Assembly (NCBI GenBank): GCA_905479265.1
Contig: CAJQLX010000009.1
Coordinates: 564-64,563, forward strand
Direction of reading: 5' to 3'
DNA: 64,000 bases
DNA from: an uncultured Alphaproteobacteria bacterium
Lineage (GTDB): Bacteria; Pseudomonadota; Alphaproteobacteria; UBA7985
The notes under the pieces were generated by a model. The model made no database searches. It had not been told where the DNA came from and saw only the letters and a list, made by a program, of their open reading frames with translations. Positions within the stretch are counted from its first letter, which is position 1; every line of letters begins with the position of its first letter. Of the stretch, positions 1,477 through 9,368 are shown piece by piece. A program made the position numbers and the translations under genes.

Positions 1477-1588
1477 CCCGCCTCTCAAACTACAAATTGT
1501 TAGAAAGAACTCTTGCAATCTGCCGAATCAACTCCGATTTAAGGGTTAGCGTCGGGGGCCGCATCATTCTTAGAGGAGAGGCTTCACC

Positions 1589-1684
1589 TTGAACTCGCCA
1601 ACACTTCGAAACCTTGGTCTCGCAGTATACGTGATACTCGCTGTCGTGACTGCGTTTGCCGCCATGTCCGGAACGGTGTTCTAA
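1589..1684 (+). CDS. Small hydrophobic peptide (31 aa, TTG start), possible single-pass membrane protein upstream of the XpaC-like gene
   Basis: Translation is LNSPTLRNLGLAVYVILAVVTAFAAMSGTVF. A good RBS (agaggagagg) sits 8 nt upstream of the TTG. The stop codon is 3 nt before the next ATG at 1688. It is below the ORF-track length cutoff, so it was found by reading the sequence directly. Confidence 0.3.
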   Translation: MNSPTLRNLGLAVYVILAVVTAFAAMSGTVF

Positions 1685-1687
1685 GCC

Positions 1688-2584
1688 ATGTCGCAGGGAA
1701 AACGGGTTTCTTCCAAATCCATGAAAGCTGGTGCCTTTGCAGAAACCAGCGAAAAGCAAGTGGTGCCAGTAAACGGCCTAAAGGCTGGTTTGACGCGCTG
1801 GTTGGTGGCTCTGCCACTCCCCGTCATGGTGCTTGCACTGCTCATCGAAACCGTCAGCGCCGATATCTTTACCGCTCTGGCCTTGCTGGTCGCCATTGCG
1901 CTGCAGCTTGCGGGCATCGGGCTGGTGCGTCGGGGCTTGACCGTTCGGCAGTCCGGCGGGGTTGAAGCCGCGCTAAACAGTCCATCGACCGCTCTGGGCC
2001 TGGGCTCAGCAGCGCTGGTGGCGGCTTTGTTCCTGCTGTGCTTATCAGGCCCAGCCGGGCCATTACAGGCCATAGGCGTTGCCGCTTTGGGCGCAATCGG
2101 CCTGTGGCTGGCGCTCTTCACCTCAACCGGCGCGGAACAGGCGTCGAACGGTTTGGGTGAGAAAGTCGCCGGCATCGATATGGGTGACCTGCGCAAGCAA
2201 CTCGCCCAAGCGCACGACTACGTCAAACGGATGCGGACCAGCGGCGCACAGTTGTCCTCGTCCGACAATCAAGCACAAGTGGTCCGAATCGCCGACCATG
2301 CCGAGGGCGTGCTCGAAGGTATTTTGGCAGACCCCGGTGATATTCGTCGCGCCCGTCGCTTCATGGCCACCTACCTCGAACGCGCCGCGACATCCGTGGA
2401 GCAGTTTGCAGCCGCCGAAACCAAGGGCAAGGCAGACGGCCATCGCGCCGACTTTAACGCCACGCTCGACGTGATTGAAAAAGCATTTAACGACCAGAAA
2501 CAACGGTTGGACGCAGAAGATTCCATAGATCTCGAAGTCCAGCTCGACGTCCTACGCAAACAAATGGAGCGGGAAGGCCTCTAA
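1688..2584 (+). CDS. XpaC-like membrane protein (5-bromo-4-chloroindolyl phosphate hydrolysis protein family; N-terminal TM helices plus C-terminal coiled/charged domain)
   Basis: Several N-terminal TM segments, then a charged helical C-terminal region (DLRKQLAQAHDYVKRMR..LERAATSVEQFAAAE..). It lies immediately upstream of a TelA/YaaN homologue, the same pairing as the B. subtilis xpaC-yaaN operon. The family assignment rests on architecture and context, not on any alignment I could run. Confidence 0.5.
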   Translation: MSQGKRVSSKSMKAGAFAETSEKQVVPVNGLKAGLTRWLVALPLPVMVLALLIETVSADIFTALALLVAIALQLAGIGLVRRGLTVRQSGGVEAALNSPSTALGLGSAALVAALFLLCLSGPAGPLQAIGVAALGAIGLWLALFTSTGAEQASNGLGEKVAGIDMGDLRKQLAQAHDYVKRMRTSGAQLSSSDNQAQVVRIADHAEGVLEGILADPGDIRRARRFMATYLERAATSVEQFAAAETKGKADGHRADFNATLDVIEKAFNDQKQRLDAEDSIDLEVQLDVLRKQMEREGL

Positions 2585-2629
2585 AAAGAGCCGCCGCCAT
2601 CCAAGCCGAACCAAAAGGGATAAATTCCA

Positions 2630-3799
2630 ATGGCAACCGAAACCAAAACCGCCGTCGCTGAAGTCATTTTTCCAGACGTGGCCGCAGATGGATCCGTCAC
2701 CAACACAGCGTTGGTGCCCGTTGATCCGGATGATCCAACCAACCAGGCGATGGTGAACAAGTACATGTCCGAGCTGGATATGTCGGACACCAACTCGATC
2801 ATCTTTTTCGGATCGAAAGCGCAGCAGGAGCTGACGACCATTTCGTCAACCATGCTCGATGGCGTGCGCAACAAAGATGTTGGCCCCGCCGGCGACGCAC
2901 TGACCAACATGGTTTCGGCGCTGAAGGGCTTTGACGCGCGCTCCTTGGATCCAAACCGCAAGCCAAACTTTTTCATGCGCTTGCTGGGCATGGGTCAGGA
3001 CAATCTGGTCCGGTTTCAGTCCAAATTCGACACGGTACAGGGTCAAGTCGATCAGATCGAAATCGACTTGGAGAAGCAAAAGACGGTGATGCTCACCGAC
3101 ATTGAAAAGCTCGATAAGCTCTACGATGCCAACCTCGACTACTTCCATGATCTCGAACTGTGGATTGACGCCGGTGAGAAGAAGCTGGCCTTGCTGAACG
3201 AGGAAGACATCCCAGCGCTCGAAGCCAAGGCAGAACAATCTGGCGAAATGCTGGATGCCCAAGCCGTGCGCGATCTCCGCTCTGCCCGCGATGATCTGGA
3301 GCGCCGCGTTCACGACTTGCGACTCACCCGCCAGGTGACGATGCAGTCCCTGCCGTCGATCCGGTTGGTGCAGGAAAACGACAAGGCGTTGGTGAACAAG
3401 ATCAACTCGATTGTCGTCAACACCAAGCCGCTTTGGCAGCAGCAGCTGGCACAGGCGATTGCCATTCACAACATGGCCAAAACCGGCCAAGCGGTCGAGG
3501 CAGCACAGGATTTGACCAATGATTTGCTCAAAGCCAATGCCGATAACCTGCGCGCCGGCAACGCCCAAGTGCGCGAGCAGATTGAGCGCGGTGTCTTTGA
3601 CATTGAAACCGTGCAGGAAGCCAATGATAGCCTGATCGGGGCCATCAATGACTCCCTGATGATCGCCGATGAAGCCAAGAAGAAGCGCGCTGCGGCTGTG
3701 GTCGCCATGCAATCCATGGAAAACGATCTCAAGGCCGTGCTGAAGTCTGCTTCCGGCGCTGCGATCGAGGCTGGCCAATCAGCCGTCGACGCCAACTAA
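2630..3799 (+). CDS. telA: TelA/YaaN/KlaA-family toxic anion resistance protein
   Basis: 389 aa with the family's N-terminal pattern (..NQAMVNKYMSELDMSDTNSIIFFGSKAQQELTTISSTMLDGVRNKDVGPAGDALTNMVSALKGFD..) and a long coiled-coil body, both typical of the TelA family. Confidence 0.8.
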   Translation: MATETKTAVAEVIFPDVAADGSVTNTALVPVDPDDPTNQAMVNKYMSELDMSDTNSIIFFGSKAQQELTTISSTMLDGVRNKDVGPAGDALTNMVSALKGFDARSLDPNRKPNFFMRLLGMGQDNLVRFQSKFDTVQGQVDQIEIDLEKQKTVMLTDIEKLDKLYDANLDYFHDLELWIDAGEKKLALLNEEDIPALEAKAEQSGEMLDAQAVRDLRSARDDLERRVHDLRLTRQVTMQSLPSIRLVQENDKALVNKINSIVVNTKPLWQQQLAQAIAIHNMAKTGQAVEAAQDLTNDLLKANADNLRAGNAQVREQIERGVFDIETVQEANDSLIGAINDSLMIADEAKKKRAAAVVAMQSMENDLKAVLKSASGAAIEAGQSAVDAN

Positions 3800-3842
3800 A
3801 CAAACACTGTCATTTGCACAGAAACGAAGGAGAAGGCCTAAA

Positions 3843-4958
3843 ATGGCATTCGGAATTTTCGGCGGTCAGTTCATCGACGTTATCGAATGGACCGATGATA
3901 CCAGCGACACGATGGTGTACCGCTTTGAACGTCAAGGGAATGAAATCAAATACGGCGCCATGCTCACGGTCCGCGAAGGACAAGTTGCGGTCATGGTCAA
4001 CGAAGGCGAAGTCGCCGACGTGTTTGATCCCGGCTTATGGCAACTGGAAACGGCAAACCTGCCGGTTCTCAGCACGCTTCAATCTTGGAAGTACGGCTTT
4101 AAAAGCCCGTTCAAGTGCGAAGTTTACTTCATCAACACCAAGCGGTTTTCCGACCTCAAATGGGGCACGAAAAACCCGATCATGCTGCGCGATGCCGAGT
4201 TTGGCCCCGTGCGCCTGCGGGCTTTTGGCACCTACGAAATCCGTGTTGCAGACCCGGTCGAGTTCCTGCGCGAAGTTGTTGGCACCGATGGTCGGTTTTC
4301 CGTCGATGAGGTCAGCGACCAGCTGCGCAATTTGATTGTCAGCCGGGTTGCGGTTGGCTTGGGTAAAGCGAAGATCCCTGCGCTGGATCTGGCCGCGAAT
4401 TATATGGAGCTGGGGGATTTTCTGACAAACCTCGTCGGTCCAGATTTCGCCGCCTATGGTCTGGATCTGCAAAAGCTGCTGATCGAAAACATCTCCCTGC
4501 CGCCAAATGTCGAAGAAGCGCTGGACAAGCGTTCGTCGATGGGTGTGATCGGTGATCTCAACAAATACATGCAGTTTCAGGCTGCTGAATCCCTCACGGC
4601 AGGCGGCGAAGCTGGCGGCGCTGCGGCGTCGGGTGCTGGCATGGGTATGGGCTTTGCGATGGCACAGCAAATGGCGGCTGCCTTCTCGCCCAACGGGGGT
4701 GCTTCCCCTGCGGCGGCAGCGGCACCGCCCCCGCTGCCTTCTGAGCCATCCTACTATATTGCGGTAAACGGCGGTCAGACGGGCCCGTTTCAGGGTCACG
4801 CCCTGCACGACGAAATCGCAGCCGGCCGCCTGCACTCAGACGCGCTGGTTTGGGCCGCAGGCATGGCTGCTTGGACCAAGGCATCTGACGTGCCGGCCAT
4901 TGCGCGTTTGTTTGACGTGGCACCGCCGCCGGTCCCCGGTTCACCACCTCCGCTGTAG
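3843..4958 (+). CDS. SPFH/band-7 domain protein of the YdjI type (COG4260), with a Gly/Ala/Pro-rich linker and a C-terminal DUF4339 (GYF-like) domain
   Basis: The N-terminus (FIDVIEWTDDTSDTMVYRF, LSTLQSWKYGFKSPFKCEVYFINTKRFSDLKWGTKNPI) aligns by eye with B. subtilis YdjI (VVEW, LSTLKGFKFGF, EVLFVNTKEF, WGTKQ). The C-terminus (YYIAVNGGQTGPF..LVWAAGMAAWTKASDVP) matches the DUF4339 pattern and replaces the zinc ribbon found in YdjI. Confidence 0.75.
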   Translation: MAFGIFGGQFIDVIEWTDDTSDTMVYRFERQGNEIKYGAMLTVREGQVAVMVNEGEVADVFDPGLWQLETANLPVLSTLQSWKYGFKSPFKCEVYFINTKRFSDLKWGTKNPIMLRDAEFGPVRLRAFGTYEIRVADPVEFLREVVGTDGRFSVDEVSDQLRNLIVSRVAVGLGKAKIPALDLAANYMELGDFLTNLVGPDFAAYGLDLQKLLIENISLPPNVEEALDKRSSMGVIGDLNKYMQFQAAESLTAGGEAGGAAASGAGMGMGFAMAQQMAAAFSPNGGASPAAAAAPPPLPSEPSYYIAVNGGQTGPFQGHALHDEIAAGRLHSDALVWAAGMAAWTKASDVPAIARLFDVAPPPVPGSPPPL

Positions 4959-5073
4959 CGCAAACAACAAGGGGGCCCAGCGCCCCCTTTCTTTTTGCAA
5001 GAGCCACGGGTTTCATGATGGGTGTGACTTTCGTATTCTTGCGACCACTGACGATCAAAACGGGGACTTTCTC

Positions 5074-6180
5074 ATGGATGCGGCATCACGCGAGGAAACA
5101 GGAACGCTCGAACGCCAAGACTACCCGTGTCAGAACTGCGGGGCGTTGCTGGCCTTCAAGCCCGGCGCTGACGCTTTGGGGTGCGATTATTGCGGTCACG
5201 TAAACCCCCTGCACCATGATGCGCGCGAGATTGTGGAGAATGACCTCGATAGCGCTCTACGGGATTTAGAAAACAGCCACGCGACCGACCATGTGGCGTC
5301 GATCAAGTGCGACAGCTGCGCAGCAGAGTTCACCCTCGCCCAAAATGAAACAGCCGGCCGGTGCCCGTTTTGTGCGGTGCCTGTGGTGGTTGATCCGGTG
5401 CAAGTGCGGCGCTTGACCCCCGATGCTGTCCTGCCGTTCAAGCTGACGGCAAAGGAGGCGCGCCAAGCGACCAAACGCTGGCTAAAACGATCGTGGTTGG
5501 CCCCCGAAGCCATGCGACGACACACGACCGCCGACGATCAATTCAAAGGCGTTTACCTGCCCTACTGGACCTATGACGCTGATACGGCGTCTCGGTATCA
5601 GGGCTTTCGCGGCGATACCTATACCGTCACGGTTGGCAGTGGGGAAAACCGGCGCACCGAAACCCGCGTGCGTTGGACGCCCAAAAGCGGCCGCGTGGCG
5701 CGCCTTTTTGACGACGTGCTGGTGCCGTCGTCCCATTCTCTACCGGCCAAATATCTGTCTCGATTGACGCCGTGGGATTTGGAAAATCAGCGCCCTTATG
5801 CGGATGAATACCTTGCCGGCTATATCTCCGAGGCCTACCAAATGCCCTTGGCCGAAGGGTTCACAGAAGCCAAACGCATCATGCAGATCGCGATTGAACG
5901 GGACGTTCGGCGGTCCATCGGTGGTGATCGCCAGCGCATCACGCGGCTTGAAACCCACTATGACGACACGACCTTCAAGCACGTCTTGCTGCCCACGTTT
6001 TTGTCTGCTTTTCGCTGGAAAAACAAAGTTTACCGCTTCGTGGTCAATGCGCGAACGGGCGAGGTACAGGGCGAGCGCCCTGTTTCGTGGTGGAAAGTCA
6101 CGCTGCTGATCATCTTGGGATTGATCGCAGGGGGGCTGGTGCTGGCCGGTATGATTGCGTACGAGGGCGCTGATATCTAG
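5074..6180 (+). CDS. Double zinc-ribbon protein with a C-terminal transmembrane anchor (putative YdjG-like partner of the SPFH protein)
   Basis: Two CxxC..CxxC ribbons at the N-terminus (CQNCGALLAF..CDYCGH ; CDSCAAEF..CPFCA), a roughly 250-aa conserved middle domain, and a C-terminal TM helix (WWKVTLLIILGLIAGGLVLAGMIAY). The ATG at 5074 is chosen because the ORF-track start at 4900 would overlap the upstream gene. Confidence 0.6.
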   Translation: MDAASREETGTLERQDYPCQNCGALLAFKPGADALGCDYCGHVNPLHHDAREIVENDLDSALRDLENSHATDHVASIKCDSCAAEFTLAQNETAGRCPFCAVPVVVDPVQVRRLTPDAVLPFKLTAKEARQATKRWLKRSWLAPEAMRRHTTADDQFKGVYLPYWTYDADTASRYQGFRGDTYTVTVGSGENRRTETRVRWTPKSGRVARLFDDVLVPSSHSLPAKYLSRLTPWDLENQRPYADEYLAGYISEAYQMPLAEGFTEAKRIMQIAIERDVRRSIGGDRQRITRLETHYDDTTFKHVLLPTFLSAFRWKNKVYRFVVNARTGEVQGERPVSWWKVTLLIILGLIAGGLVLAGMIAYEGADI

Positions 6181-7442: not shown

Positions 7443-9368
7443 GTGAAGTCACGGGATTCCAAGAGAGGCGTTTTCGCTCCTGTAACAGCTGTTTGGCGAT
7501 GGTTATGGGCGCCGAGGAAGAATCCTCATGCGGTTGAGGAGCGCGCCGATCAGCGCCGCCGTGACAAAAGACGGCGCGGGACAAGCAACCCAGCGCGAAT
7601 GCCGAGCAACCGTAAGCCAGAGGCGGCAAAGGCAACGCAAGACCGGGCCTATGTCGATAAAAGCGGAAGCGTGCGCCTGACCGATGGTGGACGCATCATT
7701 GCCCGGGCTGGCAAAGGTTCCAAAACCGCGGCGCTTGCCGATGCCGAAGCCCTATACGAGCAGCGCTTGGGTGAACTGACGGCGCTCGAAACCGCGCTGT
7801 CCAACGCCTCTGTTTCAATCGCTGGCTTAGAGCCGCAGGTCGCTCAGTTAAAAGTGGATCTCAGGGATACGCCCGGGCTCGGTGATCTCGACGCCTTGGA
7901 CGCGCGATTTGCGGCGTTGGAAACGGCTTTGGAGGCGCACACGCAGGCCCAATGGGGCCAAAAGCGCGACATCATTGGTCGGCTGGAGGCCTTGAGCAAA
8001 GCGTCACCCAGCACGCTAACCGCCCGCATCGACGCGCTGGTTGAGGAGTGGGGTCAGTCCGGTTCTGCTGGTGCCGTCCATGATACCGTGCTCGAACGAC
8101 GCTACGTCGCGGCACTGGAAGCGGCAACAAAGCGCGCGCAGATCGCCACAGAACAGCCAGAGCTGTTTGCAGCAGAGCGGCAAGCTGTTCTCGATGACTT
8201 GGTCGAGTTGATGTCCAGCACCCACCGCAGCAACATGCAGCCGAAACTCCACGGCTTGATGCAGGCTTGGGAAGAAGCCGGCGGGCCGGACGATGGTGCG
8301 CTGGACCAGCGCTTCACCCAGATGACGGCGGCGGTTGAACGGGACATTCTTGCGCTTGCGAGTGAAACACAGAATTTGCGCGCTGAGGCCGAAGAGGAAG
8401 CGACTGTGCTTGAGCAAGCCTTCGACAGCCTCGCGAGCGATGCGGATGCCTTAACCGACGGCAAAGATTTGCAGCGCTTGGCCCAGTCTGTGAGCACCTT
8501 GGAAACAAAATCAGGCGGGCAAAACCGCGATATTACCGACAAACTGCGTCGCCGGATTGATGAATTGCAATGGCGCGCAGATCGAGAAATCGAAAAACGT
8601 CGCGCGCAAGTCGCAACGCTGGCCAACGATGCCCGGCAGCATCTGATTCGTGCCAAGGAGATTCCCACAGAGCCCTCAACGCTCAAAGAGTGGCGCGGTA
8701 TTGAAGAAGCGGCCAAAGCCGGCATGGACAGCGCGGAAAACGCGCTGGCGACCATGAAGAAATTGGGGCGCGTTGCCGCTGAGGATGTCGGGAGAATAGG
8801 CGCAGATCTCCGCGACACACGCAAAGCCGTGAACGAAGCCCGCAAAGCGTTTTTTGAGACGCTCGACGAAAGCCGGGAAACAAACAATTTCCGCAAGCGC
8901 GCCCTCTTGGACCGCTTGAGCCACCCGCCTCTGGGCGCGTCGGTCAAAGCACTTGATGAGCACGTCGAGGCTGTCATGGCCGACTGGAAACAGACCGGCA
9001 GTGCCGGGCGGGAGACGGACCAAGCGCTTTGGGCGGAGTTTCAGGATGTGCGATCGGGCATTCGTACGCTCCGCGATGACGCATCGGCTGCTGAACGCGC
9101 CGATTTTGGCGCGCGCTTGGCTGAAGCCTTCACCCGAAAACGCGAATTGAGCTACGCGCTTGAAGATGAAATCCGCATGGGCAAGCTCGTTCTGGAAAAC
9201 AAACCAGACCCAAAGTTCGAGAAAGAATTAAAGCGCAAAGAGCGTCGTTTGGGGGATCTCCGCAAGGATTTGTCCGACATCCAGCGCAAACTGTCCAAGC
9301 TGTCAAAAACCAAGGCGCCACTGGTGGCTGAAGCCGAAGCGAAGCAACCCTCTGATCACGCCGCATAA
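7443..9368 (+). CDS. DUF349-like helical-repeat protein (alternative start at ATG 7599)
   Basis: Long, charged, alpha-helical protein with repeated W..xxG.xxxE..L motifs (QAQWGQKRDIIGRLEAL ; LVEEWGQSGSAG ; LMQAWEEAGGPDDGALDQRF ; VMADWKQTGSAGRETDQALWAEF) that are characteristic of DUF349. The first 52 codons are Arg-rich and may not be translated. Confidence 0.6.
   Translation: MKSRDSKRGVFAPVTAVWRWLWAPRKNPHAVEERADQRRRDKRRRGTSNPARMPSNRKPEAAKATQDRAYVDKSGSVRLTDGGRIIARAGKGSKTAALADAEALYEQRLGELTALETALSNASVSIAGLEPQVAQLKVDLRDTPGLGDLDALDARFAALETALEAHTQAQWGQKRDIIGRLEALSKASPSTLTARIDALVEEWGQSGSAGAVHDTVLERRYVAALEAATKRAQIATEQPELFAAERQAVLDDLVELMSSTHRSNMQPKLHGLMQAWEEAGGPDDGALDQRFTQMTAAVERDILALASETQNLRAEAEEEATVLEQAFDSLASDADALTDGKDLQRLAQSVSTLETKSGGQNRDITDKLRRRIDELQWRADREIEKRRAQVATLANDARQHLIRAKEIPTEPSTLKEWRGIEEAAKAGMDSAENALATMKKLGRVAAEDVGRIGADLRDTRKAVNEARKAFFETLDESRETNNFRKRALLDRLSHPPLGASVKALDEHVEAVMADWKQTGSAGRETDQALWAEFQDVRSGIRTLRDDASAAERADFGARLAEAFTRKRELSYALEDEIRMGKLVLENKPDPKFEKELKRKERRLGDLRKDLSDIQRKLSKLSKTKAPLVAEAEAKQPSDHAA

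Follow-up and report, generated by a model that had tools for sequence, protein, structure and literature searches.

A cluster joining XpaC-TelA and SPFH-GYF/YdjG-like gene pairs in Alpha- and Gammaproteobacteria, a putative membrane-integrity module

We examined a 64,000-nucleotide stretch of DNA from an uncultured alphaproteobacterium of the UBA7985 lineage (contig CAJQLX010000009.1, positions 564 to 64,563 of the forward strand; hereafter the window), in which two gene pairs that Bacillus subtilis keeps in separate operons stand side by side in one cluster. The cluster occupies positions 1589 to 6180 of the window, all on the forward strand, and comprises a micro-open reading frame (micro-ORF) of 31 aa with a TTG start (1589-1684), a gene for an XpaC-family protein of 298 aa (1688-2584), telA (389 aa; 2630-3799), a gene for a YdjI/SamI-type SPFH protein (gene 4, 371 aa; 3843-4958), and a gene for a YdjG/SamG homologue (gene 5, 368 aa; 5074-6180). 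The last of these begins at an ATG inside a longer ORF (4900-6180), a start that agrees with public gene calls on identical metagenome contigs. An earlier note, made from the window's letters alone, had listed five co-directional genes separated by 3, 45, 43 and 115 nt and had suspected an alphaproteobacterial origin; the ORFs confirm the former, and the nearest relatives of the locus carry the label Alphaproteobacteria. The G+C content of the cluster (0.54-0.64) is the same as that of its flanks. For comparison with other genomes, one genome per species was scanned with an alignment of the YdjG family, giving more than 600 matching stretches, of which the best 80 were taken with 8-kb flanks; together with three loci added by look-up they formed a set of 83 loci, which were compared by tblastn with the window proteins and by all-against-all clustering of ORFs. 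Individual loci and contigs are cited below by L numbers.

Apart from the micro-ORF, all genes of the cluster fall into known families, and both pairs are known as fragments of Bacillus operons. Pfam profiles bore out all of the families that had been named from the sequence (XpaC, TelA, SPFH and DUF4339/GYF), including the accession PF10112 given in the earlier note, and NCBIfam profiles added nothing beyond Pfam for the cluster proteins. The XpaC-like protein matches PF10112 (Halogen_Hydrol/XpaC) with E 2.7e-17 and 63.8 bits against a cut-off of 29.8; a hydropathy scan predicts 3-4 transmembrane helices in its N-terminal half, and it has a putative helical domain in the cytoplasm besides. 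It is thus a membrane protein above the family's gathering score and encoded directly upstream of telA, as expected of XpaC. The idea that it corresponds to KlaA of RK2-type kilA/telAB operons gained no support: tblastn against 72,556 plasmids gave two weak matches and no RK2-type kilA operon, a search poorly suited to decide the matter. TelA matches PF05816 over essentially the full profile (E 3.6e-103, 345.6 bits, positions 2-331 of 332) and has no transmembrane segment in the hydropathy scan; the AlphaFold2 model consists of long helices only (predicted local distance difference test score, pLDDT, 69), so that a full-length family match and a predicted soluble, all-alpha protein coincide. 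The identical TelA protein is found on about 100 public contigs, and in the PHROGs database it matches the generic TelA family, annotated 'tellurite resistance'. As a side observation, a passage in PMC3762200 citing Suprenant et al. 2007 describes an SPFH-like shoulder domain in the eukaryotic major vault protein, which is there reported to be related to the TelA family; the adjacency of TelA and SPFH genes in bacteria is a curious parallel to it.

The product of gene 4 matches Band_7_1 over the complete profile (PF13421, 1.2e-95, 319.5 bits, positions 1-211 of 211) and Band_7 as well (6.6e-17), and carries GYF_2 (PF14237, formerly DUF4339; 8.1e-16, 58 bits) at its C-terminus. Its layout is Band_7_1, a Gly/Ala/Met-rich linker, PPPLP, GYF_2 and PPPVPGSPPPL, with no transmembrane segment in the hydropathy scan. 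Relative to B. subtilis YdjI it shows 30% identity over the SPFH domain (E 7e-42) and diverges afterwards. The Band_7_1 domain and the lack of a membrane segment place it with the YdjI/SamI type, but GYF_2 stands where that type has its C-terminal zinc ribbon or ribbons. This swap had been noticed in the window; it proved to be the rule, since GYF_2 was found in all 66 non-Bacillus partner SPFH proteins sampled, and B. subtilis YdjI alone among 67 SPFH proteins matched zinc-ribbon models. Pro-rich PPPxP motifs flank the GYF domain in 59-65 of the 67 sequences. We also considered whether GYF_2 binds a Pro-rich N-terminal tail of the YdjG-like partner and rejected this as a general mechanism, as such a tail occurs in only 21 of 120 homologues and is missing from the window protein; the conserved PPPxP motifs sit in the SPFH protein itself.

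Gene 5, first described as a double zinc-ribbon protein with a C-terminal transmembrane anchor, was confirmed as such and could be identified more sharply as a full-length homologue of YdjG/SamG, judging by sequence and profile comparison. The reference was the B. subtilis pspA-ydjGHI locus, recovered from a metagenome contig by an exact match to a published ydjG primer. BLASTP aligned residues 17-358 of gene 5 with residues 5-329 of B. subtilis YdjG (2e-36, 26% identity over 345 residues), and hhalign of the family profile against YdjG gave a probability of about 100% (E 4.3e-39, 311 columns). The two CxxC...CxxC ribbons (C19/C22/C37/C40 and C79/C82/C97/C100) are invariant in 40 homologues and line up with both ribbons of B. 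subtilis YdjG; in the same 40-member alignment the central domain shows the invariant motifs PYWTYD, FDD, PWDL, IGGD.Q, KH.LLP and N.RTG.V.GERP, with the transmembrane segment after them. This segment is the only one (residues 344-362 of 368, within a predicted helix 339-366) and leaves six residues behind it. Gene 5 is accordingly predicted to carry both zinc ribbons in the cytosol, along with a conserved alpha+beta domain, and to be anchored in the membrane by its C-terminus. For B. subtilis YdjG, a published analysis (PMC11237479) reports a pair of zinc ribbons, a transmembrane segment and a domain of uncharacterised function related to YpeB (PepSY/NTF2-like fold). Of the family's features, the two ribbons, full-length homology and the anchor are present in gene 5. 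No Pfam profile matched it above its cut-off. The family is large, with more than 4,494 proteins at E <= 0.001 among 8,000 candidates scored, and the window protein is 43-52% identical to homologues from Planctomycetota, Bacteroidota, and Gamma- and Alphaproteobacteria. Since the family is both large and commonly mislabelled (as 'primosomal protein N' (replication factor Y) - superfamily II helicase', 'DNA-directed RNA polymerase subunit RPC12/RpoP', 'TFIIB-type zinc ribbon protein', 'LSD1 subclass zinc finger protein' or 'ribosomal protein S27E'), a correct YdjG-like family name would be useful for annotation.

The merged cluster is recurrent in Alpha- and Gammaproteobacteria. Among the best 80 loci and the three added to them, the YdjG-like gene was immediately preceded by a co-directional SPFH gene in 66 of the 77 with enough upstream DNA, and the resulting 66 SPFH-GYF/YdjG-like pairs span at least 10 phyla, with occurrences in Alpha- and Gammaproteobacteria, Planctomycetota, Bacteroidota, Acidobacteriota, Gemmatimonadota, Chlorobi, Sumerlaeota, a Pontiellaceae genome and one metagenome-assembled genome labelled Bacillota. 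An XpaC homologue was found upstream of TelA in 34 loci. The full arrangement XpaC-TelA-SPFH-YdjG, with order and strand preserved, was present in 13 of 19 gammaproteobacterial loci (Granulosicoccaceae, Methylococcales and Thiotrichaceae among them), in 15 of 17 loci of Rhodobacterales and in 2 of 5 loci of other Alphaproteobacteria, to which the window is additional, and in none of the non-proteobacterial loci of the phyla sampled. The merger of the two pairs that had been seen in the window is therefore real, but not peculiar to this genome. Since either pair can be found by itself, their coming together again and again carries information. The order even survives inserted genes: in Rhodobacterales a DUF2927 gene stands between TelA and SPFH in 16 loci (e.g. 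L014:5171-6130), and in 9 the SPFH and YdjG-like genes are separated by one for a membrane protein resembling cytochrome b561 (e.g. L036:114-686). Across Alpha- and Gammaproteobacteria gene order is kept at protein identities of approximately 50-55%, with a TelA-SPFH spacing of 43 nt in the window, and the neighbouring genes differ entirely between lineages, so that the cluster genes alone travel together. A rough neighbour-joining tree of the YdjG-like proteins, calculated without support values, follows taxonomy; linkage to TelA appears in it in at least four clades of Proteobacteria and has been lost sporadically. XpaC-TelA without the SPFH pair occurs in Chromatiaceae, beside a V-type ATPase operon. 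On the Chromatiaceae-type contigs L090 (5359-8182) and L091 (5417-8158) we also noted that XpaC and TelA have between them a short ORF in reverse orientation (108-114 aa), without a Pfam match.

The 31-aa peptide with a transmembrane helix had seemed the weakest item in the description of the cluster, yet a hydrophobic ORF of 27-45 aa, ending at the start of XpaC or slightly overlapping it, directly precedes this gene in 32 of the 34 XpaC-carrying loci, and the micro-ORF is by this conservation a real gene. In the window it reads MNSPTLRNLGLAVYVILAVVTAFAAMSGTVF, with one transmembrane helix in the hydropathy scan, no Pfam match above cut-off, and GGAGAGG 7 nt upstream of the TTG start. Compared with the closest relative, L004, it shows five amino acid changes in 31 and about 21 nucleotide differences with no indels, while the spacer upstream has indels. 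The pattern shared across loci is M-x3-4-[LIF]-[QRK]-[KRN] followed by the transmembrane helix; Rhodobacterales micro-ORFs end in GG[LVI], and many from Gammaproteobacteria contain a lipobox-like ...[LV][AVT][ST]C-Q. Gene callers missed the micro-ORF in the public copies of the window locus; a 44-aa gene was called at the same position in L091, and the Prokaryotic Genome Annotation Pipeline (PGAP) annotates WP_172965400.1 (MPERLRRVVGILLILSAIGVAAWQSLL...) before the XpaC gene of the Thiodictyon plasmid pTs417. In the window, 3 nt separate the stop codon of the micro-ORF from the XpaC ATG, and no evident Shine-Dalgarno sequence serves the latter, so that the micro-ORF is probably translationally coupled to XpaC. 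In Thiodictyon syntrophicum pTs417 (L086:5344-6387) the micro-ORF and XpaC-family gene occur without TelA and adjoin genes for arsenosugar biosynthesis (ArsS and a TIGR04282 glycosyltransferase) and a glutathione S-transferase.

Signals for transcription qualify the proposal that all five genes form a single operon. A sigma-70 scan returned nothing convincing upstream of the cluster. The block TTGCAA-17 nt-GATTTA (1513-1541, forward strand), in the 112-nt gap before the micro-ORF, keeps both hexamers and most of its spacer in L004 while the adjacent intergenic bases diverge; as the scan did not report it, we regard it as a candidate promoter only. Between genes 4 and 5, the terminator scan identified a hairpin, AAGGGGGC-CCAGC-GCCCCCTT followed by TCTTTTTGCA (4969-4999, forward strand), that begins 11 nt past the SPFH stop codon and has eight pairs, six of them G-C; it appears in the predicted RNA fold also. 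L004 keeps this hairpin, with one G-U pair and a longer T-run (TTTTTT), in a spacer that otherwise does not align. Terminator-like sites in the region are no more frequent than chance would give (6 found, 7.6 expected), so the case for a terminator rests on position and conservation. The 115-nt spacer as a whole does not fold better than shuffled sequence (z -0.92), and only the local hairpin stands out; this value and the lack of any Rfam family match in the cluster (best E 0.91) led us to reject a regulatory RNA there. Co-directional genes with short gaps make one operon plausible for genes 1 to 4, but a single transcript that includes gene 5 is uncertain because of the conserved terminator-like hairpin. 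The hairpin could lower the level of the YdjG-like anchor relative to the SPFH scaffold, by analogy with B. subtilis, where a terminator between pspA and ydjG has such an effect (PMC8581546). Antisense inside the SPFH gene (4428-4399, reverse strand), we also noted a near-consensus sigma-70 match (TTGTCA, 18 nt, TATAAT; 11/12), possibly by chance.

Comparison with characterised systems shows resemblance to several and identity with none. As the earlier note had stated, the homologous B. subtilis genes form two operons, xpaC-yaaN and pspA-ydjG-ydjH-ydjI, both in the sigma-W regulon (PMC3498285). Like the latter (pspA-ydjGHI, also pspA-samGHI), the cluster has neighbouring genes for a full-length YdjG homologue with ribbons, alpha+beta domain and C-terminal transmembrane segment, and for a YdjI/SamI homologue with Band_7_1 and no transmembrane segment. 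Unlike it, the cluster has the SPFH gene before the YdjG-like gene (the Bacillus order is ydjG-ydjH-ydjI), its SPFH protein has GYF_2 at the C-terminus where YdjI has zinc ribbons, and TelA-XpaC takes the upstream position where Bacillus has pspA. The reported absence of PspA and YdjH-like genes held up: B. subtilis queries gave no tblastn match at E <= 1e-3 over the whole 64-kb window, and homologues of PspA and of YdjH (TPM-domain) were likewise undetected in all of the 83 related loci at this threshold. A PspA/ESCRT-III gene and ydjH within the operon, the mark of a Psp-type system, are therefore lacking in the window and the 83 loci, a scope narrower than the whole genome.

The upstream half agrees with the Firmicutes xpaC-yaaN pair (lmo1966-1967 in Listeria monocytogenes, xpaC-telA in Enterococcus faecium) in its families, in the order XpaC then TelA, and in having a membrane-bound XpaC and a soluble TelA. 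It differs in being joined to the SPFH/YdjG-like pair and in its XpaC-like protein, which is far from the Pfam core members (63.8 bits) and has extra N-terminal transmembrane helices. Among the proteobacterial loci sampled, the conserved micro-ORF precedes XpaC here and in most others. A TelA-family protein is also found in the Ter and KilA-TelAB systems (TerZABCDE; RK2 klaA-telA-telB), but TerB, TerC, TerD and TerY are missing among the neighbours of the window cluster, so that it does not qualify as a Ter system. That TerB and TerD do not accompany it had been noted from the sequence, and the flanking genes indeed belong to other families; TerB, TerD and TerC were sought by Pfam among these neighbours only, the rest of the window not being screened for Ter domains. 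Finally, HflK/C and the flotillins (FloT/FloA, with NfeD/YqiJ partners) share with our cluster an SPFH scaffold gene beside a gene for a dedicated membrane partner. Here, unlike in those systems, the SPFH protein has no transmembrane segment or hairpin of its own and the partner is a tail-anchored zinc-ribbon protein, not NfeD; in place of the long coiled-coil domain of flotillins there is a low-complexity linker and GYF_2. The literature we searched describes neither a PspA- and YdjH-free SPFH-GYF/YdjG unit, nor the union with XpaC-TelA in Proteobacteria, nor the micro-ORF, nor this exact five-gene arrangement; a prior mention, for example in older work on Ter or TelA contexts, is possible.

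With moderate confidence we read the region as a module for membrane integrity (envelope stress), working on the cytoplasmic side of the inner membrane and built from two conserved gene pairs. Its starting points are observed or computed, namely gene content, homologies, predicted topologies and the recurrence of the arrangement. In the first pair, the micro-protein, the polytopic XpaC and the soluble TelA would affect the binding of membrane-active compounds and the distribution of phospholipid domains, as the Firmicutes analogy suggests: deletion of xpaC in E. faecium redistributes anionic-lipid microdomains and increases daptomycin binding, only if TelA is intact (PMC6811118), and according to a passage in PMC12791056 citing the work, the sensitivity of a Listeria telA mutant is raised 4-fold for nisin and 2-fold for tellurite. 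XpaC may restrain or position TelA. In the second pair, the tail-anchored YdjG-like protein most likely tethers SPFH-GYF oligomers to the inner membrane face, with its zinc ribbons and alpha+beta domain facing the cytoplasm, and GYF_2 with the flanking PPPxP motifs probably serves self-assembly or the recruitment of partners. In B. subtilis, membrane foci of YdjI and PspA need YdjG and YdjH, and in cells lacking YdjI membrane fluidity is changed and stress signalling is switched on constitutively (PMC8581546; preprint 10.64898/2026.02.06.704340). Because the cluster has no PspA or YdjH and TelA-XpaC lies directly upstream, we infer joint action of the two halves, such that the micro-protein, XpaC and TelA would work on the same stressed membrane patch as the SPFH/YdjG platform; the physical contacts, the inducing stress and any PspA-like role of TelA belong to this inferred part. 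A more specific version, in which TelA is the membrane-repair or remodelling effector recruited by the SPFH/YdjG platform and XpaC with the micro-protein of about 30 aa is its receptor or brake, we hold to be doubtful. TelA would there be a functional analogue of PspA, to which it is unrelated in sequence, a suggestion drawn from its gene position and the absence of PspA.

Several observations weigh against this interpretation. The experimental anchors for the mechanism come from Firmicutes only, and the survey frequencies are biased, the 80 loci being the closest relatives among more than 600. Many lineages carry either pair without the other, and an interaction between the pairs can only be conjectured. 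In a B. subtilis two-hybrid assay YdjI bound YdjH and not YdjG (PMC8581546); direct SPFH-YdjG binding is an assumption here, because the partner of B. subtilis YdjI, YdjH, is absent. The conserved hairpin splits the SPFH/YdjG-like pair, so that the proportion in which the two genes are expressed may vary. Lastly, we rejected TelA as a structural relative of PspA/ESCRT-III: in a Foldseek search of its model against PDB, the best E was 0.023 with template modelling (TM) scores below 0.26 and the top matches were unrelated long-helix proteins, and phmmer against PDB sequences gave no match. Because these structural searches were negative, the comparison with PspA survives only as a functional analogy.

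The main alternative is that micro-ORF-XpaC-TelA and SPFH/YdjG-like are two independent units that merely adjoin, inherited together as a block by synteny without functional coupling, which we consider unlikely while giving it more weight than the other alternatives. It would explain why SPFH/YdjG-like genes stand alone in Planctomycetota, Bacteroidota, Acidobacteriota, Gemmatimonadota and Rhodospirillaceae and XpaC-TelA alone in Chromatiaceae, why linkage of the pairs largely tracks taxonomy in the YdjG tree, and why unrelated genes may separate the pairs in Rhodobacterales and a terminator-like element lies inside the cluster. Against simple synteny, however, stand the order and strand held between Alpha- and Gammaproteobacteria despite approximately 50-55% protein identity, with the 43-nt spacing in the window; the complete turnover of flanking genes around a cluster that stays together; and the response of both homologous B. 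subtilis operons to one stress sigma factor.

Less probable still is a dedicated resistance to toxic oxyanions (tellurite, selenite or other metalloids), with TelA as effector and the other proteins as accessories. The family name and PHROGs annotation of TelA point this way, as do the 2-fold tellurite sensitivity of the Listeria mutant, the neighbours of micro-ORF-XpaC on Thiodictyon pTs417 and, in 10 Granulosicoccaceae loci, a gene for a thiopurine/chalcogen S-methyltransferase (TPMT, PF05724) directly upstream of micro-ORF-XpaC (among them L011:3825-4493, 1.8e-63; same place in L015, L018, L023, L027, L029, L037, L040 and L072). The TPMT linkage is, however, limited to that one family; no TerB, TerC, TerD, TehA/B or other metalloid gene was found among the genes flanking the window cluster; and the SPFH/YdjG half has no known connection to metalloids. 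In Firmicutes, moreover, TelA phenotypes are at least as strong for envelope antibiotics, going by the nisin and tellurite values that PMC12791056 cites.

An anti-phage or abortive-infection module at the membrane, which the earlier note had also raised, is very improbable: although TelA is found in jumbo phages and, according to one proposal, builds structures beneath the membrane that keep phages or xenobiotics out (PMC7824862; PHROG match), an integrase and a resolvase lie 2-5 kb upstream on the source contig, and one gammaproteobacterial locus is approximately 2.3 kb from a BrxR-Wadjet cluster, the XpaC-like, TelA and SPFH proteins matched no PADLOC-DB v2 model, gene 5 gave only a marginal match in its zinc-ribbon region (PDC-S64, E 0.0025, 14.8 bits), the neighbourhoods in the 83 loci are variable and mostly housekeeping, the YdjG tree tracks taxonomy rather than the patchy pattern of defence islands, and base composition is not atypical.

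The cluster is flanked by genes whose products match, in Pfam, a CitMHS transporter, a solute-binding protein (SBP_bac_8), a DUF349 protein and a polysaccharide deacetylase (Polysacc_deac_1). The window begins within the transporter gene (CitMHS/TrkA_C, 28-1476), which precedes the cluster. On public contigs with the identical locus (L087:524-3694), a resolvase gene, a 327-aa gene and a gene for a 455-aa phage-type integrase immediately precede the CitMHS gene; this region could be the edge of an integrated element. Downstream, beyond the divergent gene for the solute-binding protein, lies a gene for a DUF349-repeat protein of 641 aa, probably coiled-coil (7443-9368, forward strand), which is split into two ORFs or shortened in some metagenome copies (L087 and L089, compared with L088), differences that suggest frameshift variants or assembly errors.

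Screens for nisin, daptomycin, bacteriocin and tellurite tolerance repeatedly return TelA/YaaN and XpaC, yet no mechanism is established for either; studies of YdjI/SamI and YdjG/SamG are confined to B. subtilis and treat them only as helpers of PspA. Because the SPFH/YdjG pair is widespread as a unit without PspA or YdjH, in at least 10 phyla, recruiting PspA cannot be all there is to its core function. Numerous marine and methanotrophic Proteobacteria have the unit linked to XpaC-TelA, so that two systems linked so far by a shared Bacillus sigma factor alone are brought into one testable hypothesis. The merged cluster suggests that TelA works together with a membrane scaffold, and a conserved, largely unannotated micro-protein belongs to the XpaC unit. 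If TelA were indeed the effector of the SPFH/YdjG platform, a 'tellurite resistance' protein that has lacked a mechanism for decades would gain a defined cellular role, and the SPFH stress response would have a widespread branch that is independent of PspA.

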